Assembly (NCBI GenBank): GCA_964471565.1
Contig: CAYYFK010000001.1
Span: forward strand, 36,692 to 100,691
From: Candidatus Woesearchaeota archaeon
GTDB taxonomy: Archaea; Nanobdellota; Nanobdellia; SCGC-AAA011-G17; PNOQ01
Reading direction: 5' to 3'
DNA: 64,000 nucleotides
The translations under genes and the position numbers were made by a program. Under the pieces are notes generated by a model. The model ran no database searches. It was given only the letters and a program-made list of their open reading frames with translations, and had not been told where the DNA came from. Shown piece after piece: positions 25,550 through 42,249 of the stretch (the first letter of the stretch is position 1; each line of letters starts with the position of its first letter).

Positions 25550-25580
25550 ATTAATAGGGAAGTTATCAAAAACTTATAAA

Positions 25581-26685: not shown

Positions 26686-28701
26686 TCATTTATTTAACTT
26701 TCTAATTGGATTTTTCTGCTCCATGGAAAAAATAACAAATGGTCTATTATCCAAATATTTTCTAACTTTTATATTATCTATAATAACACTTCCCTTCAAA
26801 AAACTGTCTGCATTAAAATTAACCATGCCAATTTCTGAAATTAAATCAAAATTCTCCAAGTTCAAAGCAGATTCCTCATTAAAATAAAAATCAAAATTGG
26901 TATCGGATTTCTGAACAATACTAATATCATTCCAAATAAAATGGTCATACATAATTCCAGTAGGTTCCCACCCATCATATTGATGATTATAAACTAAAAA
27001 TTCATTTATGGCTTCTTCTCCACCAAATTTTAGACGTGCACCAAACCTATCTCCATCTAAATTTTTAATTCCCACTTCTCCCCTACTAAAATGGGTAAAA
27101 TAAATAGAAAAATCAACAGCAACCTCGTTAAGGGATTTATTCATAGATTTAGAATCGACTCCCCCTGGCCTATACAATGGCAACCAACTGAGATAATCAG
27201 AAATAAATTCTCCAGAAATAGTTTCATCCTTTTCTGTTTGAATAAATACCTTATCTTCTGAGCTATCCGAACAAAGAAGATTTTGCTTACTTGTGGCATA
27301 CTCTATAACTGCTCCCACCTTGCTTCCATAATTATGGCATTGACTATTGCAACCAAAATAATACATTCCAATTTGATTTGAACCAATGTCATCTTTAACA
27401 ATAACTGGGTCTTCGACCCTAAGAAAATTATATTCTTTGGTTCCAGTCAAAAAAGGGTTTTTTGAATATCTTGTCCAATTAATTAAATCTGTACTATGGG
27501 CAGCACCCAAGAAAAGCTTGAAATTACCTACTTCCTCCCCCCCATTATAAGTCATCAAATATTGTCCAGGAGACAATTCAATTAATTTAGGGTTCGCAAC
27601 GTGTTTCCCATCCCATTCACCCGATTCCCCTAAAAAACCTGCAGACCCATTATGCATAGGGGTCCAATTATATCCATCATCTGAAGTAGCAAAAAAAATC
27701 TGGAAATGATTCAGGCTAGGATCAATTCCTTCCATTCCCATAATATATCCTCCAGTAGAAAGTTTTATCATGTATGGAATAGAAGGTTTTACATTAGAAA
27801 CTCCATCCTGCCCATAAAATTGATATTCTGTCAGTACAGGATTCCCAATATATTTTTCCCAGTTTATACCATCATATGAAGTAGCAATACCAATTCCATA
27901 ATTATCGCTCGAATTTTTACCGACATAATTCATTAAATAATAATTTTCATCCAGCTTAATAACATTTCCAGTGGCAATTGTACTATCATCCCATTCTCCA
28001 ATTTCTCCTTGACCTAAAACAAGAACGCCATCCGACCACTCTGTTCTTTTAAGTCCTTCAGAAACTGTCCTAAATATTCTGGATCCATCCACCCCAGATC
28101 CATACCCCATATAATACCCAATATAGTGTTCATCTTCAACGACCATATATCCTTTTTCATCAATCATGGGGGCAAATCCCCTAATGCTCTTATTATCTAG
28201 GCCATCTCCATGAGGTTCAATAATAGGGTTTTTCTCGTCCTGTTCCCAAATACCAAGAGAAAACTTATCAAATATTTTAGGGCATTTCCTATTTCCAGAA
28301 TAATCATCAAAATATAAAAAAGTACTATATCCGTCACTTAAACTATTGGCATCATCATTTCCATAATAAAGATAAATTTTATTTTTTATAGCCCCTTTTT
28401 TTGAAGAAGGCAATTTCACCCAAAATTTAGAATTCTCCTTTACATTACATTCCTCTGTCCAAAAATCAAGCAAATTACCACTATAATCTGTAAACCGAAT
28501 ATCTGAGCAATCATAATTTATTTTGCCTCCCTTGTATTCCCTAGCAAATCCCTTATTTATCTCAATTTGGTAGTCGCTAACATCCTCAAAAGATGCAATA
28601 TTCACTGGGATCCTATACTCCCAATTACTTAACCAAGCATAGCTTGGACTAGCTAAGGACAAAAAAATCAAAAATACCAGTAAACTTTTCCATAATTTCA
28701 T
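26686..28701 (-). CDS. Secreted DUF2341-domain protein fused to a 5-bladed beta-propeller glycoside-hydrolase-like domain
   Basis: After the signal: WLSNWEYRIPV...DCSDIRFTD...FWVKLP...IYLYYGNDDA (DUF2341 pattern). Then repeated blades (GINWEKYIGNPVL, NWTRYSKNPFL) like GH43/32/130. Confidence 0.5.
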   Translation of the reverse strand: MKLWKSLLVFLIFLSLASPSYAWLSNWEYRIPVNIASFEDVSDYQIEINKGFAREYKGGKINYDCSDIRFTDYSGNLLDFWTEECNVKENSKFWVKLPSSKKGAIKNKIYLYYGNDDANSLSDGYSTFLYFDDYSGNRKCPKIFDKFSLGIWEQDEKNPIIEPHGDGLDNKSIRGFAPMIDEKGYMVVEDEHYIGYYMGYGSGVDGSRIFRTVSEGLKRTEWSDGVLVLGQGEIGEWDDSTIATGNVIKLDENYYLMNYVGKNSSDNYGIGIATSYDGINWEKYIGNPVLTEYQFYGQDGVSNVKPSIPYMIKLSTGGYIMGMEGIDPSLNHFQIFFATSDDGYNWTPMHNGSAGFLGESGEWDGKHVANPKLIELSPGQYLMTYNGGEEVGNFKLFLGAAHSTDLINWTRYSKNPFLTGTKEYNFLRVEDPVIVKDDIGSNQIGMYYFGCNSQCHNYGSKVGAVIEYATSKQNLLCSDSSEDKVFIQTEKDETISGEFISDYLSWLPLYRPGGVDSKSMNKSLNEVAVDFSIYFTHFSRGEVGIKNLDGDRFGARLKFGGEEAINEFLVYNHQYDGWEPTGIMYDHFIWNDISIVQKSDTNFDFYFNEESALNLENFDLISEIGMVNFNADSFLKGSVIIDNIKVRKYLDNRPFVIFSMEQKNPIRKLNK

Positions 28702-28733: not shown

Positions 28734-29933
28734 TTATTTTCTTCTTTTTCTAAAGTAAATAAACCACCCTATATTGATAAGTACCAAAACAACCAAAGCA
28801 ATTACAATCACATTATTCTTATCCATTCCAGGCCCATTGGCTATCACCGCGCCAGTTCCAAAAAAATCAAACTTAATTGAATTTAAACTAATAATTGTTT
28901 TGACATTTTTCTCTATTTTTTCATCATCATAATTTAAAATTATTTTAAAGTTATATTCTCCTTCTTCTACCCCCGCAGAATCCCAGAAAGCGGTTAACTC
29001 CATTTTAGACATTGGAGGAATATCCTCGGAGGCACTCTTGAATCTGCCTATTTCTTCACTTAAATCCATAACAATTAATTCAACAAATGCATCACTTATT
29101 TCTTCAGACCAACGGTTATCAACCAGAATATCAAATCTGGCAATCTCTCCGAGTCTAAAGTTTTTAACGGTTATATCTATAACCTCTACATTCTTTTCTC
29201 CAACATCAAATATCAAATCACCATAACTTACTTCACCATCATAAGTTAATGTAAGCTTAGCATAATATTTCCCTATATTTATTGGGCCATTCCAAGTAGC
29301 CTGAAATTCTTTTCTATTTTGTGCATCTATAGAATCCAGCTTAGTCTCTAATGTAATTATTTTCTCATTAGTCAAACCATATATATCTATTATCCCTTTG
29401 GCATTTACTATTTTTTGATTCCCAAGATTGCTAGCTACAATTCTAAAATCCACTTGATCTATTCTTCCCGTCTCTATTATGTTTAAATCAGAAATAACAT
29501 ATTTCCCAGGATAAGGAACCTTTATTCTTAATTGATGTACAACTGCTACACTTGCCCCCATCATGGTATCCGATGTAGCATAATCTTTTGGAATTTCCCT
29601 TACAACTATTTTGACATCATGGTCTCCAGGGATACCAAATTTATTAGGTAAATTATATGAATATCGAATGGTTTTTGATTCCTCTCCTTCTATAAATTCC
29701 AATTCATAATCTTCAAGTCTCACAACGTTTGCATCATCTCCCTCTAAATAGATAACAACTTTCATTTCTTTATTCTCAGTATTAATTATTTTCAAACTAA
29801 TTTCATCTTCCAACCCTGGTTCAAAATCTACTATCTTCCTTGCTGGAGAAATTCCTAAGGCACTTACTTCATTGATAAAAATAATAAGAACTAAGAAAAA
29901 CATACAAATTCCTATTTTTTTTATTAATTTCAT
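28734..29933 (-). CDS. Surface protein, N-terminal signal and C-terminal TM anchor (paralogue of 38797..39945)
   Basis: Signal ...EVSA|LG. C-terminal VIVIALVVLVLINIGWFIYFRKRRK. Aligns by eye with 38797..39945. Start overlaps giant gene stop by 4 nt. Confidence 0.6.
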   Translation of the reverse strand: MKLIKKIGICMFFLVLIIFINEVSALGISPARKIVDFEPGLEDEISLKIINTENKEMKVVIYLEGDDANVVRLEDYELEFIEGEESKTIRYSYNLPNKFGIPGDHDVKIVVREIPKDYATSDTMMGASVAVVHQLRIKVPYPGKYVISDLNIIETGRIDQVDFRIVASNLGNQKIVNAKGIIDIYGLTNEKIITLETKLDSIDAQNRKEFQATWNGPINIGKYYAKLTLTYDGEVSYGDLIFDVGEKNVEVIDITVKNFRLGEIARFDILVDNRWSEEISDAFVELIVMDLSEEIGRFKSASEDIPPMSKMELTAFWDSAGVEEGEYNFKIILNYDDEKIEKNVKTIISLNSIKFDFFGTGAVIANGPGMDKNNVIVIALVVLVLINIGWFIYFRKRRK

Positions 29934-32900
29934 TCTGTTAAGCTACTCTCAAACAATATATATGAGGTTTTGTTTCCTGCAGGCTCATCTGAAGGAAGTT
30001 CTATTAATATTTCACATTGCGCAGTATCATTAGTATCTTGATATTTCAATGAATCAATAGCAATAACTTGTGCAGTGGCCATGTTTGTCCAAGTAACAAA
30101 AGAGTTCAACCAATCAAATGCTGTTTCTTCACTACTATTATCAATTCTAAACTGGTAGTATGAAGTATCCATTGCAACAGCATCAAATAATGTGGTCGCA
30201 TTAACGCTAATATTAATTAAAGCATTACCATCATTTTTAACTACGATTGGTGTAGGGCTTTCATCAGTGGTATTATCCATATCTCCCGTATATAATCTCC
30301 CAAAATTGGGAGATTCATTAATCAAACTAACCGCCAAGAGAGATTGGACAGTAAAATTATACGGATCACTCCAAACTCCCAAGTCAGAGGAATCATTAGC
30401 CCTAACTCTCCACCAATAACTTAAATCTAAATCTAAATCACTAAGGATAGTATACTCATTAGTCGCAGGAGAAACATTTATTATAATCGGTTCTGAAAAA
30501 GCATCACTATCATCTAACTCCAGCAAGTAGGTTAAACTATCTCCATCAGCATCATTAGGAATACTCCAATTTGATGTCTCAGTCCTATCTACTGTTATGT
30601 TTAAATTTGCCGGGCTATCTAAAACAACTTGATTTGGGGGTTTATTCAAAATAAGTAGGGGATTTGATAAAGTAACCGGACCATCTTCCTCTAGATCATT
30701 TGGAGTTATAGCAACAGACCAATTATGTGTTTTCACTGTACCATTAGATAGAATTCTCATAGGAGAATGATTTGCTAACCCCGCTTGATAATTAGCTAAA
30801 ATTTGTTCACTTGAAAGGGATTCATTATATATTCTTAGTTCATCTACACTTCCATTAAACATTCTACCTGGATAATAGGTATCTCTTCCTACCAGCACAT
30901 CAATACTTGAATCTCTTATATTCCCAGTATATTCTTCGCCCTCTGTCCTTACTCCATCAATATATAAAGAAATATTTTGTCGATCATAAACTCCAACAAC
31001 ATGGTGCCACCCTCCTACAGAAACCCCCCCAGAAGTAGTTGCAGAATAGGCTTGATCGGCAGCTGCAGCGCCCAATATTCTGAATTGTACATCTCCGCTT
31101 GTCCAAGCCCTAAGCAAAAAAGAGTTTCTATGGCCTGCAGTTCCTTCTGCAGCACCAGACCCCTTCATAACAAAAGATTGGTAATCAAGATCTTTAGATT
31201 TATTTACCCATATTTCTACAGTTAGTTCTTTAGTTATATTCAAACTATCGGTGTGACTAAAATTAATATATGGTCTTACACTTTCATTTGGATTAAGAGA
31301 ATACGCTCCCCCCTTTGCTCCACTATTTATCCATACAGGGTAATTTAGTGAAGAGCCACCCTCCCATTGCTGGAGAGTACCATTATTTCCAAAAGTAGAA
31401 TAATCTTTTATTATATTTAAAGCAATAGAAGATTCATTTGAATCAAAAGGAGCATTCAAAACAGCCGAAGAATTTCCATTCAACCTCCAATCTGTTATGT
31501 TATAAATTCCATCTCCATCATTATCTACATAAGTATCAAAATAAACAGTTAAATTTTCATCGGTGTAATTAGTATTGCTATCTGAAGTTGTATTTAATAG
31601 AACATTTGTGTATGCTGATGGAATGGTATTCAAAATAGTTATATTGCTAGAATTCCCCCATCCACCAAAAATAGTGCCATCATGCAATCTTATACTACAA
31701 TTCCATACCTCCCACTTGGTAGTATTTGAACTATTTAGGGTTGCATTAAATAATGTTCCGCTTGCATAAGAATCATTGTAGTCCTGACTCAACCATAGAA
31801 CTGAATTATTATACCACCTTACACTAACATTTAATTTATTAGAATCTGGATCAGTTATTGTAGCTGAACAATTTAAGTTTTGAGTAGTATAATTTGTTGG
31901 CCCGCCTGTAGCATTTAAAAGAGGACTTGGGGTATTGGGAGCAACATTACTAGTCCCTGTAGTAAAATTATAAGTTCCAGTTTCGTTACAATTATTCTCA
32001 TAATCACAAGAGGTTAAATTATAATAATATATTGTACCTTCTGACAACCCAGATAGATTAAAAGAATGGAATAATCCCAAACTTAAGTTTCCATAAGTTG
32101 TTCCTAGGGAAACAGTTCCCCCATAATTAAGGGAGGCATTTGAAGATTCTTGACTAGTCCAATTTATATCTACAGTAGTATAGCCAGTTGTATTAGTTCT
32201 ATTAAGTACCCAAGGAATTTCTTCGGTTGCCGAGAATATTGAATTATAATCTAGGTTATACTTCTTTTGTTGTTCTGTAAAGTTATATCTTATGCCAGTA
32301 TTATTTTCCCAAGATACATTTTGATTGGAGTTATTTAAAATGATTATATTATCGTGGGTTGTAAAATTAGTATTTGAGAAATTTGTTCCATTATCTGAAA
32401 ATCCATAGATATAGCTTTGGTTGTGCACATAAATTCTATTATTATAGACTTGGAGATTAGTTACATTTCTAGGATTTTCATACTTAGCATTCTTTGCTAC
32501 AATGGCCATTGGGCTTTCAGTCCTATTATAATTTGGACAAAAGAAGGTATTATTGTAAATTGTTGTATTGTGTCCTGCCCTTGTTACAAACCCTTCAAAA
32601 TTTGTTTGATTTTCCATAGTATTATTATATGCCCGATATAATGTTTCATGTTTGGATAAAATTCCATATCCCCCCCCTATTACACGATTATATCTTATTG
32701 TAGTATTAAACGTGCTTGCTGTAAATAGTGGGTGTTTACTTGTATGAACCCTTGCCATCCTAATTGTATTATTTTCTATAATTGTATCATTCATATCTCC
32801 TTGAAAATTAGTAACTGTATCTTCCCCAACATAAATTGAATATCCTGCAGGAACAGATATTGCAGAAACATTATGATCTATGGCATTATTCCTTATAGTC

Positions 32901-35900
32901 ATATTTTTGTTTGGTCCGTTGCCTGCTCCTTTTATGTGGATTGGGACCCCATCACTTATGTAAAAAGAGTTATTTTCGAACAAACTATTAGAAACATTAA
33001 TCACCCTAATTGCATATCCATTTGTTGATCCAGTACTCATATTAAGGAATCTTGTATCATTCCCCCATACATTATTTTGTATTTTCAACCCACCATTGTT
33101 ATTTGCAGATGCATGGATTGAAACCCATGCTCCAGAAAAATTTCCATGCCAGAAAGTATTATTTTTTATTAATAGGTTTTGGCTATTATTTATTGTTATT
33201 CCATACCTATTAATATAATCATTTTGATTTCCAAATTGATTATCTTTAATTTGCCAATTAGAACCAATATTATTTACTTCTATACAAGAAGAGCTAGAAT
33301 TTTCAAAATAATTTCCTTGAATAATTGTATTATTTGGAGAAGGTCCATAATATTTTATATGTGTACTAGTTAATTTATATGTAAAATTATTATTCTTTAT
33401 TGTTACATTTGAAGAATCATAACCAGATATTCCAGTCCCGGTATTATTGAAAACATTATCTTCAATGTGCCAATTATGTCTTGGACCGGGGGAGCCGCCA
33501 TAATCATACATTGCTATTCCATAACTTGTTGTATTCACAAAGGTATTATTATAAAGATTTATCACTCCAGTTCCCTGGTCTGCCCAAATTCCATCCTCTG
33601 TATTATTCCCATCTATGACAAAACCCTTAAACGTAACATTATTTGCTCCTGTAATAAATCTTATAACAATAGAAGAAGCACTAGTATTTGCTTGTATTAC
33701 TGCTTGTGATTTATTATAAGAAATAAAAGTTCTATTCTGTACATTCTTATCCATAATTAATAAGTAGTTTGATGCATAAGATTGTTCCCTGTATAATCCA
33801 TCTCCAACATAAATAATCGCATTTGCTCCCGCTGTATTTTCTGCATAATTTATAGTCTTCCATGCATCTTTCCAAGAAGTTCCAGCATTAGTATCGTCCC
33901 CATTCTTAGAAACATAATAAGTATTATTAAATTCTTTAAGAGTAAACTCACTTGAATTACCCCACTCACTTCCAGCAAGGCTATCATTTAATCTCATAGC
34001 ACAATGCCAGCTATCTCCTTCGGCCGTATTTCCAGAATCCAAAGATCTATTGAACAAAGTTCCACTAATATAACTATTAGTAGAATTAGTAAAATTTCCT
34101 TCGACTATGTAATCATTACTTCTATACCACCTTACTGTAACATTCATTTTATCAGAATCTGGATCAGTTATTGTAGCAGAACAGTTTAAATCGACAATGG
34201 GAGAATTAGATCCGTCTGTGGTATTTAGAATTGGGCTTGGGTTATTTGGAGCACTATTAGCAGTTCCAAACTCAAAGAAAATAGATTTATCACTTGTTAA
34301 ATTAACCTCCTTAAATTGTCCATCATAACTAGAATGATTAACTACAATAGTGTAATTGGTTTTATATCCATAATTTCCATGGGTCCTATTAATCAAACGT
34401 TCAGTTAGGTTTTGTCTAACTATATTACCATTAATATCTGTTGTAAGATTAAAAACAAGATTATTGGATTTAAATTTAGGCTTGCTCCCACCAGTATTAT
34501 TATATCCCTGAACAACAGAATCCGAAAGATTGCTATTATCAGTAGATAAATTGGTTTTAACATCCAAAAACCATTTAACCTCAAAAGAGTTCCACCCCCT
34601 ATCCCACTGAATATTTCCTGAAGAAGTATTTAATAACGTGTTATTTTCATCTCGTTCTCCGTTCGCCATTCGAAAATTAAGAGAGGATCCAGACACAATA
34701 GAATTAATAAAAGTATTATAAGTTAAATTGGACATATAAAGTGCAGTAGCAGCAGTAATACTAACATTATTGAAAGTATTGCTCTCAGAATGGTAAGTAA
34801 GCCCCCCATATGTGCCTGCAGCATTACAGCTTGAATTTACTATGTGCCCATAAAGGCTTCTACTCATATACATACAATTTGAGTTAGAATCAAAATTAGC
34901 AGAAGTAAGATTAAAATTATCTGTCTCGTGAACATATAAGGCATAGGAGGAAGAGCCCGCCCCAGTAAAATTATTTACAATTAACCCATCGATAGTATGA
35001 GCATATAAACAATAAGTTCCACAAGAACCAACAGAGTTATTTATTAAAGAAATGTCATTAAGACTTCGAGCATAAACTCCCGTAGTAGTAGAAGAAATGA
35101 TATTATTATTAGTAATATTATTAAAAGGACCGTTTGGATAAAGATAAAAACCATATTTATTCCCCTTAAGAGTATTATTATCAAATATATTATTCCTAGA
35201 AGTACTTTGAACAGAGTAGAATGCTGCTGAAGCAGTTTGGGAAGTATGGTTTTCAATTCTATTATCAACCATAGTGCTATTTTGAAAGTTTAACCCAAAA
35301 TCAATTCCATAGTCTTGTGAAGAATCTGTAGTATATATCGTATTATTAGTTATAGTCCAGTTTCCACCATAGCTTAAAAGCATTCCATGATCTGTATTAT
35401 CATAAATTATATTATTTTTTACAATAATATCATATAAATAGGTAACATATATTCCCCATCTATTACTACTAATATTATTGTTACTAAAATTTAACCCATA
35501 AGATCTAGTTGATGAAGAGGCCCTAATGCCTGCCCCACCAGTAATGTTATAAAAAGTATTGCCATCTACTAACCCCCCATTTGTATTTTTAAAATCGATT
35601 CCTAATAATGAACCAGAACCCTGGTAATTCTTAAAAGTATTATTTACAAAAGAAACATTGCTACTAGTCTGAGATTTAATTCCATAATCATACAACTCAG
35701 TAAAAGTATTATTCAGCCAAAGGTTATTATTTCCCCAATTAAATCCGCCCATAGCAAATTGTTTAATATGACAATTTTTTACTGTTATTCCATGTTTATT
35801 ATAAGCTATCCATATTCCCCAATTAGAATCATCCACATTATCTCCATCTATTATATGTCCATCACAATCCAAAACAGTATTGGTAGCAAGAGATAATCCA

Positions 35901-37474
35901 TTTGCAGCACAGTTAGTTATATCATTCTCCATAATCACAGTACCAGAAATTGCTTGTCCACAACTCAAAACATCATTATAAGCATAGGCAATCTGATTTC
36001 CAAATTCAAATTTTAAATAATGCTTAGCATCAGTCAAAACTTTACTAATTTCAATTCCAGTTTCTAAACAAGAGTAATTTTCAACAAAAACAGAGCCATT
36101 CTCCCATAAATATCCAACGCTCTCATTTCCGCATTTCAAATCTAAAAACTGTAAATCTAAATCATTCTTTTCTTTTATGTCCCAAGTTGTTCCATTAAAT
36201 GGTTTTATACTTAAATTGGCAGTTCCTGTTGTATTAAATCTTACAGTCCAATTTCCGCCCACATATGGATAACTTTGAACATTTAAAATTATAATCTCAA
36301 TTTCAAATTCTTTTTGTTTATCTAAAACTGGAATAATCCATTCAATATAATCAATCAAACCATCCTCATCTAAATCTTTAGTTTCAAATTCTCTCTCTAA
36401 CCGTCCTTCCTTTTCTAAAATATACAAATCAATACTTTCCTTAGGAACATTATCTAAATAAGTGTAGACTAAAACATTTTCAAACTCTTTTCCGCTTACA
36501 AAAACCTTCTTTCTCTCATTTCCAAGTTCAACTTCTTTAGATTCAGGACCAGGAGTAGAATATTTTATCAAAAACTCTTTAGAAGGATTCTTTATAGAAA
36601 GTTTATTTTCATCTAACTCATAAACTACTTCTCCAGTAGTTCTAAAAACATCCTTGAAAAAATTAAAAACAACATTGCCTGTAATCAAATTTTCGGATTC
36701 CTTTTCTTTACCCTTCTCAACAAAATCTTCATCATAGCCTATTTCATAATATTCTATATCAAAAACATCCTCAGGCAATTCAACATCATACAAATCTATT
36801 CTATTTTTTAACTTAACCTTCTTTTCCCAAACAACAGGTTGGTTAATTACAACCCCCAAATTCTTCAATGAAACCTCCTCAATCAAAGTTTCATTTACAA
36901 TTTCTACTACTTCATCCAAACTTAAATTTAACACACTATCATTTTTCACATGACTAGAAATATTTTCATCAAAGGTAGATTCATTATCCTCGGGGGTTGT
37001 TTCATTTAAATCAGTAGATTCATTATGTTCAAAAGTAGAATCATTTATTTCTGTAGAAATATTTTGTTTAACTCCCCCTATACCTTCATCCTCCAAACTA
37101 TTTTCAAAAGAGGGTTCTTCTTCAAAAATCTCTTCCTCAGAATCATCTTCTGGAAGTTTTTCTTCTTTCAATTCTTCTTGTGCAGGTTCCTCTAACTGTC
37201 CCTCCCCAGAAAGGCCAGCCACACCTTCTGAACCACTTTCAATATCAGATATTTCAACAACATCAAATCCTTGATAAGCAAACATTCCTAAAAAACCAAA
37301 TAAAAAAAGTAGTGCAACTAAAAAAAATAAAGTAAAAAAAGAAGTATTTCTCTTGGTAGGATCACTAGTTCCTAAATAAACACTTTTTACTTTGCCATCT
37401 TTTGTTCTAACACTTTTAAAATAGTAAGGACCAAATTTCTTTCCAGCTCTAGATATATACTTCTTATAAACCAA
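29930..37474 (-). CDS. Giant (2514 aa) membrane-anchored surface glycoprotein/adhesin with beta-helix repeats, Ig/FN3-like internal repeats and a LamG-like domain
   Basis: TTG start with GAGGGG RBS. N-terminal basic region plus TM. Hundreds of N-x-S/T sequons. PbH1-like repeats (NNIIYDNTDHG...ITNNTIY). LamG signature DELRIYNESLSSEQILANY. Two ~105-aa repeats. Confidence 0.8.
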   Translation of the reverse strand: MVYKKYISRAGKKFGPYYFKSVRTKDGKVKSVYLGTSDPTKRNTSFFTLFFLVALLFLFGFLGMFAYQGFDVVEISDIESGSEGVAGLSGEGQLEEPAQEELKEEKLPEDDSEEEIFEEEPSFENSLEDEGIGGVKQNISTEINDSTFEHNESTDLNETTPEDNESTFDENISSHVKNDSVLNLSLDEVVEIVNETLIEEVSLKNLGVVINQPVVWEKKVKLKNRIDLYDVELPEDVFDIEYYEIGYDEDFVEKGKEKESENLITGNVVFNFFKDVFRTTGEVVYELDENKLSIKNPSKEFLIKYSTPGPESKEVELGNERKKVFVSGKEFENVLVYTYLDNVPKESIDLYILEKEGRLEREFETKDLDEDGLIDYIEWIIPVLDKQKEFEIEIIILNVQSYPYVGGNWTVRFNTTGTANLSIKPFNGTTWDIKEKNDLDLQFLDLKCGNESVGYLWENGSVFVENYSCLETGIEISKVLTDAKHYLKFEFGNQIAYAYNDVLSCGQAISGTVIMENDITNCAANGLSLATNTVLDCDGHIIDGDNVDDSNWGIWIAYNKHGITVKNCHIKQFAMGGFNWGNNNLWLNNTFTELYDYGIKSQTSSNVSFVNNTFKNYQGSGSLLGIDFKNTNGGLVDGNTFYNITGGAGIRASSSTRSYGLNFSNNNISSNRWGIYVTYLYDIIVKNNIIYDNTDHGMLLSYGGNWTITNNTIYTTDSSQDYGIDFGLNFQNSTMVDNRIENHTSQTASAAFYSVQSTSRNNIFDNNTLKGNKYGFYLYPNGPFNNITNNNIISSTTTGVYARSLNDISLINNSVGSCGTYCLYAHTIDGLIVNNFTGAGSSSYALYVHETDNFNLTSANFDSNSNCMYMSRSLYGHIVNSSCNAAGTYGGLTYHSESNTFNNVSITAATALYMSNLTYNTFINSIVSGSSLNFRMANGERDENNTLLNTSSGNIQWDRGWNSFEVKWFLDVKTNLSTDNSNLSDSVVQGYNNTGGSKPKFKSNNLVFNLTTDINGNIVRQNLTERLINRTHGNYGYKTNYTIVVNHSSYDGQFKEVNLTSDKSIFFEFGTANSAPNNPSPILNTTDGSNSPIVDLNCSATITDPDSDKMNVTVRWYRSNDYIVEGNFTNSTNSYISGTLFNRSLDSGNTAEGDSWHCAMRLNDSLAGSEWGNSSEFTLKEFNNTYYVSKNGDDTNAGTSWKDAWKTINYAENTAGANAIIYVGDGLYREQSYASNYLLIMDKNVQNRTFISYNKSQAVIQANTSASSIVIRFITGANNVTFKGFVIDGNNTEDGIWADQGTGVINLYNNTFVNTTSYGIAMYDYGGSPGPRHNWHIEDNVFNNTGTGISGYDSSNVTIKNNNFTYKLTSTHIKYYGPSPNNTIIQGNYFENSSSSCIEVNNIGSNWQIKDNQFGNQNDYINRYGITINNSQNLLIKNNTFWHGNFSGAWVSIHASANNNGGLKIQNNVWGNDTRFLNMSTGSTNGYAIRVINVSNSLFENNSFYISDGVPIHIKGAGNGPNKNMTIRNNAIDHNVSAISVPAGYSIYVGEDTVTNFQGDMNDTIIENNTIRMARVHTSKHPLFTASTFNTTIRYNRVIGGGYGILSKHETLYRAYNNTMENQTNFEGFVTRAGHNTTIYNNTFFCPNYNRTESPMAIVAKNAKYENPRNVTNLQVYNNRIYVHNQSYIYGFSDNGTNFSNTNFTTHDNIIILNNSNQNVSWENNTGIRYNFTEQQKKYNLDYNSIFSATEEIPWVLNRTNTTGYTTVDINWTSQESSNASLNYGGTVSLGTTYGNLSLGLFHSFNLSGLSEGTIYYYNLTSCDYENNCNETGTYNFTTGTSNVAPNTPSPLLNATGGPTNYTTQNLNCSATITDPDSNKLNVSVRWYNNSVLWLSQDYNDSYASGTLFNATLNSSNTTKWEVWNCSIRLHDGTIFGGWGNSSNITILNTIPSAYTNVLLNTTSDSNTNYTDENLTVYFDTYVDNDGDGIYNITDWRLNGNSSAVLNAPFDSNESSIALNIIKDYSTFGNNGTLQQWEGGSSLNYPVWINSGAKGGAYSLNPNESVRPYINFSHTDSLNITKELTVEIWVNKSKDLDYQSFVMKGSGAAEGTAGHRNSFLLRAWTSGDVQFRILGAAAADQAYSATTSGGVSVGGWHHVVGVYDRQNISLYIDGVRTEGEEYTGNIRDSSIDVLVGRDTYYPGRMFNGSVDELRIYNESLSSEQILANYQAGLANHSPMRILSNGTVKTHNWSVAITPNDLEEDGPVTLSNPLLILNKPPNQVVLDSPANLNITVDRTETSNWSIPNDADGDSLTYLLELDDSDAFSEPIIINVSPATNEYTILSDLDLDLSYWWRVRANDSSDLGVWSDPYNFTVQSLLAVSLINESPNFGRLYTGDMDNTTDESPTPIVVKNDGNALINISVNATTLFDAVAMDTSYYQFRIDNSSEETAFDWLNSFVTWTNMATAQVIAIDSLKYQDTNDTAQCEILIELPSDEPAGNKTSYILFESSLTE
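31631..31948 (-). repeat. Internal domain repeat copy 2 in giant gene (NVAPNTPSPLLN...CSATITDPDSNKLNVSVRWY...)
   Basis: See copy 1. The copies are about 2.3 kb apart within the same ORF. Confidence 0.7.
33944..34258 (-). repeat. Internal domain repeat copy 1 in giant gene (NSAPNNPSPILN...CSATITDPDSDKMNVTVRWY...)
   Basis: About 30-nt near-identical DNA core (agaatctggatcagttattgtagcagaaca) shared with copy 2. Protein copies about 50% identical. Confidence 0.7.
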
Positions 37475-37566
37475 TCTACACCCCTCTTTTTAATAAAAAT
37501 AAACAAGAAAAAGTGATATAAAAACCTTTCTAAATCAGTTTACCTACAAAATAATAAAAAGAAAAA

Positions 37567-37884
37567 TTAAATGTCTCTAAGTTCTTCTTGTATTTTTCTA
37601 ATTTTTGCTAATTTTTGTTTTATCTCTAGCACTTTAGCCTGTGCTTTAGATTTATCTTTATTATAACTGCCCTCTTTCTCCACCAGCTTAGAAATCTGAT
37701 CTCTTAATTCCATCTCCTTAGACTGAGCATTCACCATTTTACTATTCAAAGAACCCACCCTTTTAGATACCTTATCTCTTTCGGCCTTCAGCTTCAGCAA
37801 CTCTTTTGATATATCTCCCAAAGCCTCAACAAGGGAACCTCTCTTCATGGGTGTTTTAAGAACCTTCTTTTTTTTAGTAACCAC
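37567..37884 (-). CDS. Small coiled-coil protein
   Basis: 105 aa. Heptad-like K/E-rich sequence (LKLKAERDKVSKRVGSLNSKMVNAQSKEMELRDQISKL). Confidence 0.45.
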   Translation of the reverse strand: MVTKKKKVLKTPMKRGSLVEALGDISKELLKLKAERDKVSKRVGSLNSKMVNAQSKEMELRDQISKLVEKEGSYNKDKSKAQAKVLEIKQKLAKIRKIQEELRDI

Positions 37885-37924
37885 TTTATACCTTTTTAAT
37901 TTTATTAATATATAAATCTTTCTT

Positions 37925-38800
37925 TTATATTTTTTTCACCATATTATTTATTCTCTTTAGTCCTTTTCTATACGCATCCTGCCCTATATATTTAGAATCG
38001 TATGCTTTTTTTAACAATCTTTTTTGCCTACTTAACTTATTTGCCATAGCAGTCTTTGCTTCTCGTGTTTTTTTGTTTTTTCTGTATGTTCCATACATTC
38101 TCTTTAATCTCTTAGATTGCGTTTTTTCTATTCTTCTTAATTTTGTTTGGTGGAATATAAAAACAAGCAATATAGCAATTCCCAACAAAACTAAAACAAA
38201 CCAGAATCCTACTTCCCATCCGGATGGAAAGAAAATCATTGGTTGTTTAATCTTTTCAGTTCTAGTTCTAGGAACACTCTTATCTCCAATAAGAGTCAAA
38301 TCGAGTGCTTTAAATTTTATTCCAACCCCATTAAAACTTGCCACTAAATCATCAGAACCATCCTCATCCAAATCAAAGAACAATAGTTCATCTGGAAGAA
38401 GACCAAACTTCTGACCAGAAATTTCTAAAATAAGTTTTTCATTGGCCCTATAGAAATAAACACTAAACTCAAACTCAGTTCCTAACTCAAAAATAGTAAG
38501 TACTTTATCCCCCGCTGATAAACCCTCTATCAAATATTCTTCATTTTCTGTAAAATCTAGAGTATGTGTTACAGGAGCAGCTCCACCTCCGGCTCCGCCA
38601 CTTCCCCCTCCAGATCCACCATCATCTCCAGGAGGATCAGAAGGTACAATTACATTCAAACCAACAGTGGCAGTAGCATAAGAATCTTCAGGAGCCACAG
38701 AAGAAGAATACTTAAAATACAATACACTTGGCATAACTATAGAAATAATTATTAATGCGAAAGCTAAAGAGGCAATTACTTCTCTTTTATACACTTTCAT
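37925..38800 (-). CDS. Bitopic membrane protein with Gly-rich linker and basic C-terminal tail
   Basis: N-terminal TM. DDGGSGGGSGGAGGGAAP. Second TM VGFWFVLVLLGIAILLVFIF, then a K/R-rich coiled tail. Confidence 0.5.
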   Translation of the reverse strand: MKVYKREVIASLAFALIIISIVMPSVLYFKYSSSVAPEDSYATATVGLNVIVPSDPPGDDGGSGGGSGGAGGGAAPVTHTLDFTENEEYLIEGLSAGDKVLTIFELGTEFEFSVYFYRANEKLILEISGQKFGLLPDELLFFDLDEDGSDDLVASFNGVGIKFKALDLTLIGDKSVPRTRTEKIKQPMIFFPSGWEVGFWFVLVLLGIAILLVFIFHQTKLRRIEKTQSKRLKRMYGTYRKNKKTREAKTAMANKLSRQKRLLKKAYDSKYIGQDAYRKGLKRINNMVKKI

Positions 38801-39945
38801 CTTTTACCATCTCTTTTTTTCTTTATTCTTATCAAAATAAAATACCCAATTCCAAATACAATAATAAAAATACCTGCCCCTACCCAAAGAATGGAATAAT
38901 CAAATGATTTAACTTCAATATCAAATTCTTCTTCAGTGTGTATATCATCATAAATAAGGCTCAATCTAGCAGGATATTTTCCAGAACTCATTCCTTCAGC
39001 ATCCACATATATTAAAACATCTCTTTCCTCCCAAGAATTTAATCTAAATGTCTCACTTTTGAAAGACTTAAATGGATTATGATATATTTCTAAAAAAGCA
39101 ACTACATTATCTATTTCATTACCCCAATCACTTTTCACTCTCAAATAATATCGGTTTATTGTACCAACCTCTACATCATTATCATAATCTAAAATAGAAA
39201 CATGTACATCTCCCAACTTAAAATTTGCCATAGATTCAGAAGTTTTACCTTGAAAGTTTAAAGTTGACATGCCCCAATAGTCTCCAAATGTATTATCTTC
39301 AGGATTCCATTTCATTTGTATCTCTTTTATTTCTCCCAATTCTAATTGATCATTAAAAGAAAGTTGACCAACACTCTCGTTATAAACATTAAAAATATCT
39401 ATAACTCCTTCAATATTACTAAGAGCGACACTACCTGTATTTTCCATTTTTAAATAAAAAGGAACTAGCTCTCCAACCGAAACACTAGTAGCTTTCAATC
39501 TTGAGCTCAAGTATGGCCCTTCAAAAGGCACTCTAACAATAAAAATACTCGCAGAAGCAGTTAAAACACTAATAAAATCGGTTGATTCTTCAATAGCGAT
39601 TTCACTAGCAACAAAATCAAAACGATAATCTCCAGGTTTTTCAAATTTTTCTGGCATGAGAATATTAAATCTAAAAGCTTTAGTTTCCCCAGGTTGGAAT
39701 AAATACTCCTGAGTTACAAAGTCTGTATAGTTTTCCATTTCACCATAAACAAACATCTTTCCAAGAACTTGCTCTTCATTAGAATTTCTAACATGAACAC
39801 TAACTCCTTTTGCCATTCCAGATTCAAATGTAACTACATCCTTACTTGGAGTTACCTCCAAAGCATACGCACTAGAAAACATACACAACAAAACCAAGAA
39901 AATAATTATTCCCCTCTTTACCATGTTTAAAGAAAAAGAAAGCAA
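38797..39945 (-). CDS. Surface protein, N-terminal signal and C-terminal TM anchor (paralogue of 28734..29933)
   Basis: Signal ...SSAYA|LE. C-terminal ILWVGAGIFIIVFGIGYFILIRIKKKRDGKR. Shared blocks with 28734..29933 (PGDYRFDFVASEI vs PGDHDVKIVVREI; GVIDIFNVYNE vs GIIDIYGLTNE). Confidence 0.6.
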   Translation of the reverse strand: MLSFSLNMVKRGIIIFLVLLCMFSSAYALEVTPSKDVVTFESGMAKGVSVHVRNSNEEQVLGKMFVYGEMENYTDFVTQEYLFQPGETKAFRFNILMPEKFEKPGDYRFDFVASEIAIEESTDFISVLTASASIFIVRVPFEGPYLSSRLKATSVSVGELVPFYLKMENTGSVALSNIEGVIDIFNVYNESVGQLSFNDQLELGEIKEIQMKWNPEDNTFGDYWGMSTLNFQGKTSESMANFKLGDVHVSILDYDNDVEVGTINRYYLRVKSDWGNEIDNVVAFLEIYHNPFKSFKSETFRLNSWEERDVLIYVDAEGMSSGKYPARLSLIYDDIHTEEEFDIEVKSFDYSILWVGAGIFIIVFGIGYFILIRIKKKRDGKR

Positions 39946-39963: not shown

Positions 39964-40530
39964 TTATCCTGTAAAGGTGCAAATAAAAGTTATAGTTCCA
40001 CTTTTCATTCCTGATCCCTCTCCGATTGGAACAGTAGCATTTACACTAACATTCATCTCATCAGTAGCAGCCGCAAAAGCTAGATCAGAAACCAAAATTT
40101 CGGCCGCACCAACAGAATTATTAATAATTTTAAAGCCAGTTACGCAAGTTCCACTTTCAGTTTCATTACATTGCATTGTCCAATTTTGAGTTGGTGCTGT
40201 CTCTGTTATAAATAAATCATCCGTAGAATAACCAGTTATGTTCTGCCCCACATTTCCTGTATTCTCCAAAACTATAAAATCTGGAACCGTAATCTCTTCG
40301 CTCCTATTATAATTTCCCCTAGTTATATTTCCTAAATTAATTGTACTATCTATAGCACTACAGGCAGTAGTGGTATTGACCTCCAATTTAACAGTTCCAG
40401 TAGTAGTAGCAGCTCCAGTTATAGTGTCCATAAAAGAAACACTAAGCCAAGTTCCAGAAACAGAAGCGATAATCGCCATAGCCAATAAAATAGCTAAACT
40501 ATTATTCGATGCCTTCATTTCCCTCAACAC
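39964..40530 (-). CDS. Secreted N-glycosylation-rich small surface protein, tandem paralogue 1
   Basis: Signal MKASNNSLAILLAMAIIASVSG. About 10 N-x-S/T sequons in 188 aa. About 75% aa identity to 40779..41321. Confidence 0.6.
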   Translation of the reverse strand: MLREMKASNNSLAILLAMAIIASVSGTWLSVSFMDTITGAATTTGTVKLEVNTTTACSAIDSTINLGNITRGNYNRSEEITVPDFIVLENTGNVGQNITGYSTDDLFITETAPTQNWTMQCNETESGTCVTGFKIINNSVGAAEILVSDLAFAAATDEMNVSVNATVPIGEGSGMKSGTITFICTFTG

Positions 40531-40801
40531 CCTCTTCTTTTATTTCATCAGCCACGACATTCAAACCTACAAATCCAGTAGCACTAGACTCCAAAACTAT
40601 ATTATTAGTGACTGGCCCACCATAAGAATGAGAATAGTCATAAACTGCATATGCCCCAAAGATGGAAACAATAACTGCCACAACCAACAAAGCAATAATG
40701 ACCTTGTCAGAGACCTCTCTCTTATCACCTTTTTTCATATAAAGAATATGAGAAGTAAAAATATATAAATCTTTTCCTTTAACCAGAGTATGTACAAACA
40801 A
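40502..40801 (-). CDS. Small membrane protein (likely starts at internal MKKGDKRE...)
   Basis: MKKGDKREVSDKVIIALLVVAVIVSIFGAYAV: one TM helix, acidic C-terminus. Lies between the tandem paralogues. Confidence 0.35.
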   Translation of the reverse strand: MFVHTLVKGKDLYIFTSHILYMKKGDKREVSDKVIIALLVVAVIVSIFGAYAVYDYSHSYGGPVTNNIVLESSATGFVGLNVVADEIKEEGVEGNEGIE

Positions 40802-41321
40802 AAGTTATAGTCCCAGTTTTCATTCCAGAGGACTCTCCGATAGGTACAGTAGCATTCACACTAACATTCATCTCATCAGTAGCAGCTATAGTAACCAAAT
40901 CATTAACTAATGTTTCCGCAGTTCCTACAGACGAATTTATTATTTTAAACCCATTCACACAGGTTCCACTCTGGCTTACATTGCACTGCATTGTCCAATT
41001 TTGAGTAGGGGCAGCTGAAGAATCAAACAAATCCGAAGTAGAATAACCAGTTATATTAAGTAAAACATTTCCGTTATTCTCAATAACAACAAAATCAGTA
41101 TCAGGAGTGCCATCAATCTCTTCACTCCTATTATAATTTCCCCTAGTTATATTTCCCAAATTAATTGTACTATCTGTAGCAGTACAAGAAGTAGAAGCAT
41201 TAACTTCCAATTTTATAGTCCCAGTTGTAACTGCTGCCCCTGTTATAGTATCCATAAAAGAAATTGCTACCCACGTGCCAGTTATAGTAGACACAACTGA
41301 AATTACCAACAAAATCACCAA
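40779..41321 (-). CDS. Secreted N-glycosylation-rich small surface protein, tandem paralogue 2 (non-ATG start)
   Basis: Long DNA stretches identical to paralogue 1 (e.g. ctcctattataatttcccctagttatatttcc). No in-frame ATG; upstream in-frame codons still encode ...SNNFLVILL matching the paralogue-1 signal. Confidence 0.55.
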   Translation of the reverse strand: MVILLVISVVSTITGTWVAISFMDTITGAAVTTGTIKLEVNASTSCTATDSTINLGNITRGNYNRSEEIDGTPDTDFVVIENNGNVLLNITGYSTSDLFDSSAAPTQNWTMQCNVSQSGTCVNGFKIINSSVGTAETLVNDLVTIAATDEMNVSVNATVPIGESSGMKTGTITFVCTYSG

Positions 41322-41379: not shown

Positions 41380-42249
41380 TTAGTATTTAAACTTTTTGAA
41401 AACAAACTGCCCAGACACATTGTCATTTAATAGTTTCTCAGCTTTTTTTGTTAAATTTCCATTTGTAAAAAATAAAACGGGTAATTTGTTATTATTTCCT
41501 TCTTCCCAAGCAAGTTGTATGTCTTTATCATTAATCACTTTTTTTGTTTTTGCTTTGACAAAATATCTCAATTTCCCCAAGGTGGTAGGAATATCTACTA
41601 CAAAATTAAACTCTTTATTTTTTCTAACTACATCTTGAGAGATAACATAAATTTCCTTCTCATTGAAATATTTATTTAATTCTTCAAATATTTCTCCTTC
41701 ACTAGATTGTGTTTTTTCTTCTTTCTTCAAAGGTTTCTTCTCAGCCCTTTCTGGTTCTTTTTTAGGAACCTCTTTTTCTTCGGTTTCTTTTTTCTTTTCA
41801 GAAACACCGAGCTCATTTTTTATCAATTCCTTTGTCTTTTCATTATCTTCCAAATAATATTTCCAAAAGATTTCATACTCTCCAGAGATCCCAACATTTA
41901 ATGGAACTGCAAAATCTTTCAAGGCCCTCAAAGCAACTCTCTGCCATGGTTCAGCAGTCTTATCTCGAATAACTCCTTTTTCTTTTAATAGTTGAAATGC
42001 CTCCTTTTCTTTTCCAGACAAATATTCAGAAAGATTCTCTAATTTATTTTCTTGACCTTTTAAATAGTAAAATGGACTGCCTCCTTTCTTCAAACTACTA
42101 ATTTGAACTTCCTTCTTATCTACTAGATTAGATAAAATAGCACTAGCAAATAAAATATTAGTATTAATAACTTTGGCAAGTTGAGCCGGAATAAGAGGCC
42201 CCTCTCTTTTTATAATATCTAGAATTTCTGCTTTATTATCTTTAACCAT
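41380..42249 (-). CDS. Winged-helix DNA-binding protein (TFE/TFIIE-alpha-like N-terminal wH) with K/E-rich linker and C-terminal domain
   Basis: ILDIIKREGPLIPAQLAKVINTNILFASAILSNLVDKKEVQ...GGSPFYYL resembles the TFE wH (GWYYYYW). Rest unassigned. Confidence 0.3.
   Translation of the reverse strand: MVKDNKAEILDIIKREGPLIPAQLAKVINTNILFASAILSNLVDKKEVQISSLKKGGSPFYYLKGQENKLENLSEYLSGKEKEAFQLLKEKGVIRDKTAEPWQRVALRALKDFAVPLNVGISGEYEIFWKYYLEDNEKTKELIKNELGVSEKKKETEEKEVPKKEPERAEKKPLKKEEKTQSSEGEIFEELNKYFNEKEIYVISQDVVRKNKEFNFVVDIPTTLGKLRYFVKAKTKKVINDKDIQLAWEEGNNNKLPVLFFTNGNLTKKAEKLLNDNVSGQFVFKKFKY

Follow-up and report, generated by a model that had tools for sequence, protein, structure and literature searches.

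Candidate WxLIP-related membrane anchors and their presumed PLD-ending partner proteins at a DPANN archaeal surface-protein locus

Introduction

Some of the largest known surface proteins are encoded by DPANN archaea, which live attached to other cells. The locus described here lies in a 64,000-nucleotide stretch of DNA from a Candidatus Woesearchaeota archaeon (the window is this whole stretch) and raises the question of how a giant protein is retained on such a cell. Two related proteins (A and B) are encoded on either side of the giant gene. They were originally predicted to form a pair serving the giant, resembling the chaperone/usher or anchor/cap pairs of surface-fibre systems. The genes of the neighbourhood are listed below in the order in which they would be read, where TM stands for transmembrane and PLD is the name used here for a common C-terminal domain of about 155 aa.

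41380..42249, minus strand: 289-aa protein without a signal peptide and without a Pfam match
40779..41321, minus strand: second small PLD protein, 180 aa, with 71% identity to the 188-aa protein
40502..40801, minus strand: short TM peptide, of a class of about 70 aa found ahead of small PLD genes in other loci
39964..40530, minus strand: small PLD protein, 188 aa, with an N-terminal TM segment or signal and one PLD; adjoins A upstream and is its presumed partner
38797..39945, minus strand: A-type paralogue, 382 aa counted from TTG, with the architecture of B
37925..38800, minus strand: Gly-rich protein, 291 aa, with two TM segments and a long basic tail
37567..37884, minus strand: coiled-coil protein, 105 aa, without a signal peptide
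29930..37474, minus strand: giant surface protein, 2,514 aa, presumed cargo of B
29936..30400, minus strand: PLD at residues 2359-2513 of the giant, sharing homology with the small PLD proteins
28734..29933, minus strand: B-type paralogue, 399 aa, in which a signal peptide and three Ig-like domains precede a TM helix and a basic tail
26686..28701, minus strand: DUF2341 protein of 671 aa, secreted and encoded downstream of B

Organization of the locus

The giant combines a cytoplasmic N-terminal motif and a TM segment with right-handed beta-helix repeats, a LamG domain and the C-terminal PLD. Its gene is translationally coupled to that of B, as had been proposed, with the TGA of the giant overlapping the ATG of B (ATGA), and an ATGA likewise joins A to the Gly-rich TM gene, the stop TGA of the one overlapping the start ATG of the other. 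An ATG at 39924 (375 aa, MVKRG...) is more probably the start of A than the TTG at 39945, and the short TM peptide probably begins at M22 (40738), giving 78 aa.

Several neighbours recur in other loci. Relatives of the Gly-rich protein, often far larger, lie 3' of an A-type gene in 35 loci, and the position of the coiled-coil protein is conserved in 14. The 289-aa protein, which may be a regulator, is found upstream of the small-PLD/A module in six loci. The DUF2341 protein probably falls outside the core since it occupies that position only in the closest relatives (loci L004 and L005).

Paralogues A and B

A and B are true ancient paralogues, and both ORFs were confirmed on the minus strand at the coordinates first given. 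They align collinearly by BLASTP over 368 aa (120 bits, E 4e-35, 27% identity, 49% positives), and the three conserved blocks from which their kinship was originally proposed all fall inside this alignment. The Smith-Waterman score of 349 stands far above that of 300 shuffled controls (40.7 +/- 6.2; z about 50), and the ectodomains by themselves score 306 against 40 +/- 6.7 for shuffled sequences.

The architecture that had been attributed to both proteins (signal peptide, beta-rich ectodomain, C-terminal TM segment and basic tail) is borne out by hydropathy and by an AF2 model of B. Hydrophobic windows in A and B are confined to the two termini, and both proteins have basic tails (...IKKKRDGKR and ...FRKRRK). 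The tail consensus of the A/B family (...LxxINxGWFxYFKxxxK) lacks a PGF motif before the C-terminal TM segment and NCBIfam gives no match, indicating that these are not PGF-CTERM/archaeosortase substrates. The B model (pLDDT 85.9) has an N-terminal helix (residues 2-18), three beta-sandwich domains (D1, 26-139; D2, 146-244; D3, 249-348), a disordered linker and a TM helix (372-398). D1 resembles DUF916, the PGBD of WxLIP, while D2 and D3 resemble DUF3324, its HBD. D2 and D3 align with each other in hhalign at a probability of 98.7% and are, by this comparison, duplicates of a DUF3324-like domain.

Relation to bacterial WxLIP

Profile comparisons identify A and B as distant archaeal homologues of WxLIP, a Gram-positive surface protein consisting of DUF916, DUF3324 and a TM segment. 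Searches of Pfam and NCBIfam with the two window proteins gave nothing significant, and neither matched the Pfam family WxLIP_HBD (PF11797) at E<=1. At that same threshold 35 of 67 family members match PF11797, on D2 and D3, and the best of these matches (1.2e-6, 28.9 bits) equals the curated cut-off. Pfam WxLIP_PGBD (PF06030) is matched on D1 by 6 of the 67 homologues, the best scoring 20.4 bits where the cut-off is 27.3. When the family was aligned by hhalign with eight bacterial WxLIPs the probability was 92% (E 6e-7), with 83% (E 9e-6) for D1 against the PGBD region and 43-92% for D2 against the HBD region.

The relationship is recovered from both directions. The family HMM places four bacterial WxLIPs at the top of 252 ORFs (Enterococcus faecium, 39.8 bits; Niallia, 23.5; Listeria, 12.0; Bacillus cereus, 11.1), the alignments being collinear over D1-D2 and D3-TM, and among 169 reported reversed or shuffled decoys the top score is 3.8 bits. 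In the reverse search of 5,112 archaeal ORFs with a WxLIP HMM, 14 of the 15 top matches are A/B members. The B model is also structurally similar to a solved WxLIP, and the bacterial WxLIPs examined end as A and B do, in a TM helix followed by a short basic tail. A search of PDB sequences with the A/B family profile missed the solved EfmWxLIP1. CARDB and DUF11, originally named as domains to look for, give only generic sub-threshold Ig matches; the specific relative is WxLIP (DUF916/DUF3324).

WxLIP (CscA; PF06030, PF11797 and a C-terminal TM segment) is encoded in the WxL/Csc clusters of Lactobacillales, Listeria and Bacillus. Such clusters combine WxLIP with a small WxL-only protein and a large one that has N-terminal adhesin domains and, invariably at its C-terminus, a WxL domain (PMC9772566, PMC10599100). 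WxL domains have been reported as exclusively bacterial (PMC9772566). WxLIP has been crystallized with a WxL partner (PDB 9i25), and in an AF2 prediction the WxL sandwich is completed by a hairpin of WxLIP (PMC9772566, PMC10599100). The arrangement of the archaeal loci is analogous, with PLD proteins in the place of the two or more WxL (PF13731) proteins of a WxLIP cluster.

The two systems also differ. WxLIP has two Ig domains set at right angles by a buttressing loop whereas A and B have three, the HBD-like domain being duplicated. The WxLIP motif NQIDKxxxYFDLK is missing from A and B, and the equivalent stretch in B reads ...ARKIVDFEPG.... One WxLIP serves several WxL proteins while A and B each have a partner of their own, and the A/B cargo can exceed 3,000 aa, unlike that of WxL systems. 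Finally, unlike WxLIP hosts, the DPANN archaea that encode A and B have no sortase, no LPXTG protein and no peptidoglycan, and for want of the last they cannot share the peptidoglycan-binding role that DUF916 has been given.

The C-terminal PLD domain

The C-terminus of the giant and the small PLD protein are homologous. They align end to end by BLASTP over 141 aa (E 8e-5), and jackhmmer recovers the PLD of the giant at E 1.7e-45 over model positions 34-187. All 142 proteins found by jackhmmer carry the domain at their very C-terminal end, with a median of two residues beyond it. Large PLD proteins pair this constant tail with variable heads, including beta-helix, LamG, S8 peptidase with FG-GAP, cadherin-like and DUF2341 domains. 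Of 30 that are complete, 18 measure 1,000 aa or more and 10 measure 2,000 aa or more, and nine incomplete ones already exceed 3,000 aa. Many giants carry an N-terminal TM segment; if uncleaved, it would already anchor them, with no need of B for tethering.

The AF2 model of the PLD, built from a 10-sequence alignment, is too poor for a fold to be read (pLDDT 38), so that a strand-complementation groove in the domain is a conjecture. The N-terminal pattern GTW...F.D...GT.KL and the pattern F.V.N.GN gave the domain a TasA/camelysin-like look, which is not supported: PF12389 is matched by 0 of 94 members, and hhalign with the exact TasA sequence gives a probability of 0.2% in which the N.G motif alone is aligned. 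Neither TasA nor AbpA was matched by the PLD profile among PDB sequences.

A WxL identity for the PLD is unproven. Pfam WxL (PF13731) matches 0 of 94 members, and hhalign with 18 real WxL domains gives a probability of 1-2%; its alignment is collinear over three motifs, yet P is about 0.02. Column-shuffle controls of the PLD/WxL comparison are favourable, but unrelated profile pairs score alike, and the rank enrichment of WxL ORFs with the PLD profile disappears against reversed decoys, leaving no signal beyond composition. The bacterial WxL clusters used in comparison were taken from plasmids by means of a synthetic WxL consensus, which found no match in the PDB.

Pairing of A and B with separate partners

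The association of each paralogue with a particular upstream neighbour was followed through 82 loci containing 83 B-type and 54 A-type genes. A PLD-ending protein is encoded upstream of 70 of the 83 B-types (directly in 24, with one gene of about 165 aa between in 46), and these partners are large, variable, adhesin-like proteins. Homologues of the window proteins thus accompany giant genes elsewhere, as the original prediction implied. A-type genes have a small PLD-only protein of about 200 aa directly upstream in 49 of 54 cases. The idea that A and B act as a pair for the giant is contradicted by this division, in which the large protein accompanies B and a separate small PLD protein accompanies A. 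The two paralogues do flank the giant in the window. In most genomes both lie downstream of it, so that the flanking layout is a rearrangement specific to the clade of the window.

The best match in other loci is of the same type for 51 of 54 A-types and all 83 B-types, by which A and B form reciprocal, separate ancient lineages. Evolutionary rates match within cognate pairs, at 0.58 for B and 0.61 for the giant PLD, and 0.72 for A and 0.73 for the small PLD, the A-type lineage evolving faster than the B-type. Comparison of distance matrices (mirror-tree) weakly favours cognate pairs, which correlate slightly better. The pairing, with start/stop overlaps, spans Woese-, Pace-, Nano- and Aenigmatarchaeota, and the association of the two lineages with distinct partners is older than the split of these groups.

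Proposed anchoring mechanism and alternatives

Taken together, the findings are best explained (at a probability of roughly 0.55) if A and B are type I membrane proteins, exposing three Ig-like domains outside the cell and ending in a TM helix and a short basic tail in the cytoplasm, and act as WxLIP-like membrane anchors that each dock the PLD of the protein encoded just upstream. B would be dedicated to the giant adhesin with its variable head and A to the small protein of about 190 aa. After Sec export, the C-terminal PLD would be the last part to emerge, and the first Ig domain of the cognate A or B might capture it by beta-strand or hairpin complementation, as is proposed for WxLIP and WxL. 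Such capture would stabilize the PLD and tether the cargo non-covalently to the membrane with the adhesive head facing outwards. On this reading each paralogue probably keeps the secreted protein of its upstream gene, the giant adhesin among them, at the surface of a tiny symbiotic DPANN cell. The paralogy, the fold, the homologies to WxLIP and among PLDs and the conserved gene pairing stand as results, and the binding, its strand-complementation mode and the anchoring role are inferences.

Assembly of a fibre is a different and unlikely explanation, in which small PLD proteins would polymerize by donor-strand exchange of the TasA/AbpA or chaperone-usher type, the giant would be a FimH-like tip adhesin with its C-terminal PLD as the pilin domain, and A and B would be membrane-bound chaperones or nucleators like PapD, TapA and AbpB. 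Its stricter form, with the PLD as an incomplete beta-sandwich, a small-PLD filament tipped by the giant and A and B doing the work of both chaperone and usher, is more doubtful still; if true, it would amount to a new pilus pathway, chaperone-assisted and of non-type-IV kind, that occurs widely in DPANN and has an evolutionary link to the WxL system of Gram-positive bacteria. The likeness to TapA/SipW/TasA of Bacillus and to the AbpB/AbpA bundling pili of Pyrobaculum lies in an accessory beta-sandwich protein encoded beside a small secreted beta-rich subunit. AbpB has 410 aa, a signal peptide and three beta domains, and strand complementation operates in TasA/AbpA systems (PMC9245690, PMC10151520). 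Some related DPANN loci also have a dedicated signal peptidase I, as TapA/SipW/TasA does, although none is present in the window cluster. The PLD has no sequence link to TasA/Peptidase_M73, no PF12389 subunit gene adjoins A or B (0 of 94 PLD), and TapA is not among the top fold matches. PapD-like chaperones (FimC, CfaA, SafB) are soluble two-domain periplasmic proteins with an usher adjacent, whereas A and B are membrane-anchored, have three domains and no PapD_N/PapD_C signature, and belong to an archaeon with a single membrane. The original comparison with chaperone/usher or anchor/cap pairs of surface-fibre systems is partly supported; no usher-like component and no Pfam PapD match was found, and nothing indicates a fibre.

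In one of two further explanations A and B would be ordinary CARDB-like Ig surface proteins or pseudo-S-layer components that happen to share transcripts with other secreted proteins, not binding the PLD specifically, but this is rather improbable as the adjacency is too regular (70 of 83 and 49 of 54, with start/stop overlaps, in four archaeal groups), two paralogue lineages have had separate partners since before these groups diverged, and the specific homologue, WxLIP, is a partner-binding protein. It is far less probable that A and B work at the translocon like TRAP-alpha, being needed only during the secretion and folding of very long beta-rich proteins and not as permanent anchors. The TRAP_alpha match is confined to the TM segment and tail (residues 378-423 of P0090) and probably reflects composition; the partner of A, at only about 190 aa, needs no special export help, and there is no further link to Sec components.

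Significance

Most DPANN-specific membrane and extracellular families have no functional prediction according to a published survey (PMC8204110), and a literature search of the library available found no paper linking DPANN with DUF3324/WxLIP and nothing specific on such a locus. Anchoring by A and B would extend the WxL/Csc display principle, so far described in Bacillota alone, to archaea without peptidoglycan, and it raises the question of what the "peptidoglycan-binding" domain DUF916 really does. For the retention of giant proteins on DPANN cells, the locus offers a testable answer in the form of a C-terminal docking domain and a WxLIP-related membrane anchor. The PLD tail can also serve as a practical sequence tag by which candidate host-attachment adhesins can be recognized in DPANN genomes, whatever their heads.

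Paralogues A and B and their gene cluster

Paralogous proteins do flank the giant gene, which confirms the original prediction. BLASTP aligns A (382 aa) and B (399 aa) collinearly over 368 residues (27% identity, 49% positives, E 4e-35) and pairs with each other the three conserved blocks that the prediction had quoted. Their Smith-Waterman score is 349 versus 40.7 +/- 6.2 for shuffled controls, and a signal of 306 versus 40 for shuffles remains without the signal peptide and transmembrane (TM) helix. The shared architecture is borne out as well, each protein having one hydrophobic segment per end and a basic tail, and so is the translational coupling of B, whose start is overlapped by the giant stop (ATGA). 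The A stop likewise overlaps the start of the next gene (ATGA). The AF2 model of B, computed from an alignment of 67 sequences, has high confidence (pLDDT 85.9) and comprises three beta-sandwich domains, D1 to D3 (residues 26-139, 146-244, and 249-348), followed by a disordered linker and a TM helix. For A, the ATG at 39924 (375 aa) is a more probable start than the TTG at 39945; a public 361-aa gene call (P0001) begins even later, removing the signal peptide. The cluster contains two small secreted proteins that share with the giant a C-terminal domain of ~155 aa, here called PLD.

Genes of the cluster in transcription order
41380-42249, 289-aa protein
40779-41321, 180-aa secreted PLD protein
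between the 180-aa and 188-aa proteins, short TM peptide
39964-40530, 188-aa secreted PLD protein, directly before A
38797-39945, minus strand, paralogue A
37925-38800, 291-aa Gly-rich protein with two TM segments
37567-37884, 105-aa coiled-coil protein
29930-37474, minus strand, giant of 2,514 aa with beta-helix and LamG domains
28734-29933, minus strand, paralogue B
26686-28701, 671-aa secreted DUF2341 protein

The minus strand carries almost all genes around the cluster. The window has a G+C content of ~31% and contains archaeal housekeeping genes for the tRNA-splicing endonuclease EndA (TIGR00324, 7e-33), aRF1, and a Cbf5-type pseudouridine synthase. The proteins examined here find their nearest homologues in Candidatus Woesearchaeota MAGs. 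The short TM peptide, called as a 99-aa ORF, likely starts at M22 (40738, 78 aa), in line with its ~70-aa homologues. The 671-aa protein matches DUF2341 (9.5e-19) and is weakly similar to GH130-like phosphorylases; its gene lies downstream of B in the closest relatives only (L004, L005), and one large PLD protein (L020) has DUF2341 internally. Downstream of the cluster (24737-26666) are genes for a methyltransferase (UPF0020/N6_N4_Mtase) and a Cas4-like PD-(D/E)XK nuclease. A 377-kb JGI contig carries the same two genes immediately after a B-type gene; thus, synteny reaches past the surface module. Two more probable surface proteins, both without a PLD tail, are encoded on the plus strand (12087-13769 and 18452-19849), one with a CBM96 domain (1.8e-13) and the other with Lamin Tail Domains (2.2e-16).

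Relationship of A and B to WxLIP

A word-indexed search found 340 homologues of B. A profile of A, B, and homologues run against 1.84 billion proteins retrieved 4,562 cluster representatives at E<=1e-3 and 1,871 at E<=1e-30. A one-genome-per-species scan gave 249 relatives, and the best 80 of these are labelled almost all as DPANN (Woese-, Pace-, Nano-, Aenigmat-, and Parvarchaeota).

Pfam and NCBIfam searches with A and B themselves returned nothing significant. Among 67 family members, 35 have sub-threshold to threshold Pfam matches to WxLIP_HBD (DUF3324) on D2 and D3, and six match WxLIP_PGBD (DUF916) on D1, in the domain order of WxLIP, the membrane-anchored partner of WxL proteins in Gram-positive bacteria. 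The WxL clusters used for comparison came from plasmids of Enterococcus, Listeria, Bacillus, Pediococcus, Companilactobacillus, Latilactobacillus, and Niallia. Comparison by hhalign of the archaeal family with eight WxLIPs gave a probability of 92% (E 6e-7), and D1 with the DUF916 region 83%; D2 and D3 are duplicates of each other (98.7%). The archaeal HMM ranked WxLIPs on top among 252 bacterial ORFs (39.8, 23.5, 12.0, and 11.1 bits, versus <=3.8 bits for reversed and shuffled decoys). Conversely, 14 of the 15 top matches of a WxLIP HMM among 5,112 archaeal ORFs were A/B members. From these profile comparisons we conclude that A and B are truly, if remotely, homologous to WxLIP and carry one additional DUF3324-like domain. 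Unlike bacterial WxLIPs, they have three domains instead of two, lack the NQIDKxxxYFDLK motif, and occur without WxL partners.

Published work describes WxL domains as confined to bacteria (PMC9772566), and most DPANN-specific extracellular families have been reported without functional prediction (PMC8204110). A literature search found no paper connecting DPANN with DUF3324 or WxLIP. A and B are best seen as a duplicated, three-domain version of a WxLIP-like anchor in archaea, whose counterpart on giant adhesins is a different docking domain.

Gene modules across loci

Genomic context is the most informative part of the evidence. ORFs were called in 82 non-redundant loci and classed with profiles built for this analysis, and two modules emerged. 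Module 1 consists of a large PLD-ending protein (308-3,104 aa when complete; the longest truncated ones exceed 3,331 aa), usually a ~165-aa TM protein, and a B-type gene. In module 2, the A-type gene comes after a ~70-aa TM peptide and then a ~200-aa PLD-only protein, and it is often followed by a ~136-aa protein, a large TM protein, and a coiled-coil protein, and sometimes by a signal peptidase I. A PLD protein lies upstream of 70 of 83 B-type genes, and a small PLD protein directly precedes 49 of 54 A-type genes; this gene pairing, like the homology of the anchor to WxLIP, is established. The heads of the large proteins vary by locus (beta-helix/NosD, LamG, S8 peptidase with FG-GAP, cadherin-like, DUF2341, and MG2). 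Evolutionary rates match within cognate pairs, which a mirror-tree comparison favours weakly.

The A-types (51/54) and B-types (83/83) find their best match in another locus within their own type, forming reciprocal groups, while A- and B-types inside one locus share a median identity of 27%. The duplication is therefore older than the divergence of these lineages. In most genomes, module 2 comes after module 1, and the flanking arrangement first described does not hold; the order is inverted only in the window and its closest relatives (L004-L006), and this places the paralogues on both sides of the giant.

The ~165-aa gene (e.g., L003:9501-10004, with equivalents in 73 loci) usually separates the large-protein gene from the B-type gene. 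It has been lost in the window clade, where the giant stop overlaps the B start directly. Its product has a TM segment, a 'PxFxW...YYWKV' unit that also stands before the PLD in giants, and a truncated PLD (an N.GN motif, then 'ITGxxxLxV'). The pair following A (the two-TM protein with its long basic tail and the coiled-coil protein, which has no signal peptide) is kept in at least 14 loci and hints at a link between surface module and cytoplasm; relatives of the two-TM protein are 290-1,450 aa long elsewhere. Tandem B-type genes (L069:8584-11104) and a second large-PLD/small-PLD/A-type arrangement ~8 kb downstream (L065:17501-21189) indicate that the system can multiply within one genome. Complete archaeal loci on contigs labelled 'Patescibacteria group bacterium' (L079) or 'uncultured Methanosarcinales' (L044, L074) probably reflect mis-binning rather than transfer.

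The PLD domain and a proposed docking mechanism

The C-terminal ~155 residues of the giant share homology with the 180- and 188-aa proteins (BLASTP E 8e-5 end to end; jackhmmer E about 1e-45), and PLD occupies the extreme C-terminus in all 142 proteins carrying it. It fits no known family, having no match among Pfam families or PDB sequences. Comparison by hhalign showed no relation to TasA, and a faint collinear similarity to the WxL domain was lost against a reversed-sequence control.

Bacterial WxL clusters encode a small WxL-only protein, a WxLIP, and a large protein with N-terminal adhesin domains (beta-helices included) and an invariably C-terminal WxL domain; in AF2 predictions, WxLIP contributes a hairpin that completes the WxL beta-sandwich (PMC9772566, PMC10599100). 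The PDB holds a WxLIP-long WxL complex (9i25). Since the archaeal loci reproduce this cluster logic with PLD in place of WxL, we propose by analogy that each of A and B captures, through strand complementation, the PLD domain of the partner encoded upstream of it. The docked partners would thereby be tethered to the membrane, B holding the giant adhesin and A the small PLD protein. The sole low-confidence ectodomain segment of B in the AF2 model, residues ~115-129 in the long D1 hairpin, is a candidate inserting element.

A role as nothing more than generic Ig-domain envelope proteins is less likely for A and B, as their pairing with PLD genes is too regular. PLD proteins and A/B might instead form a fibre-assembly system, by analogy with TasA/TapA, AbpA/AbpB, and chaperone-usher systems. 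A ~160-aa signal peptidase I-like gene (Pfam Peptidase_S24, E 1.3e-4) inside the small-PLD/A module of 10 loci, including L003 (13862-14332), L032, L038, L056, L057, L062, L066, and L079, is also drawn on for this reading and recalls tapA-sipW-tasA; the window's cluster has none. Fibre assembly is considered less probable than anchoring.

A 'hydrophobic-T/S-G-x-A/V' motif (ITGAAT, LTGKAT, ISGYAT, LTGRAT, and others) is conserved after the N-terminal TM segment of the window proteins at 39964-40530 and 40779-41321, of small PLD proteins, and of many giants elsewhere; it could mark a site of processing or form an N-terminal strand. The ~165-aa proteins carry a similar motif close to their C-terminus. 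Giants of several distant loci (the window at 37330-37474, L003, L004, L006, L053, L062, L070, and L076) share an N-terminal cytoplasmic motif, MV(Y/H)KKY(I/T)x(R/K)xGKx(F/Y)GPY(Y/L)(F/Y)(K/E)(S/T), with a TM segment after it; in other large PLD proteins the N-terminus is of the usual signal-like kind. Should this TM segment stay uncleaved, it would provide the giant with an N-terminal anchor as well.
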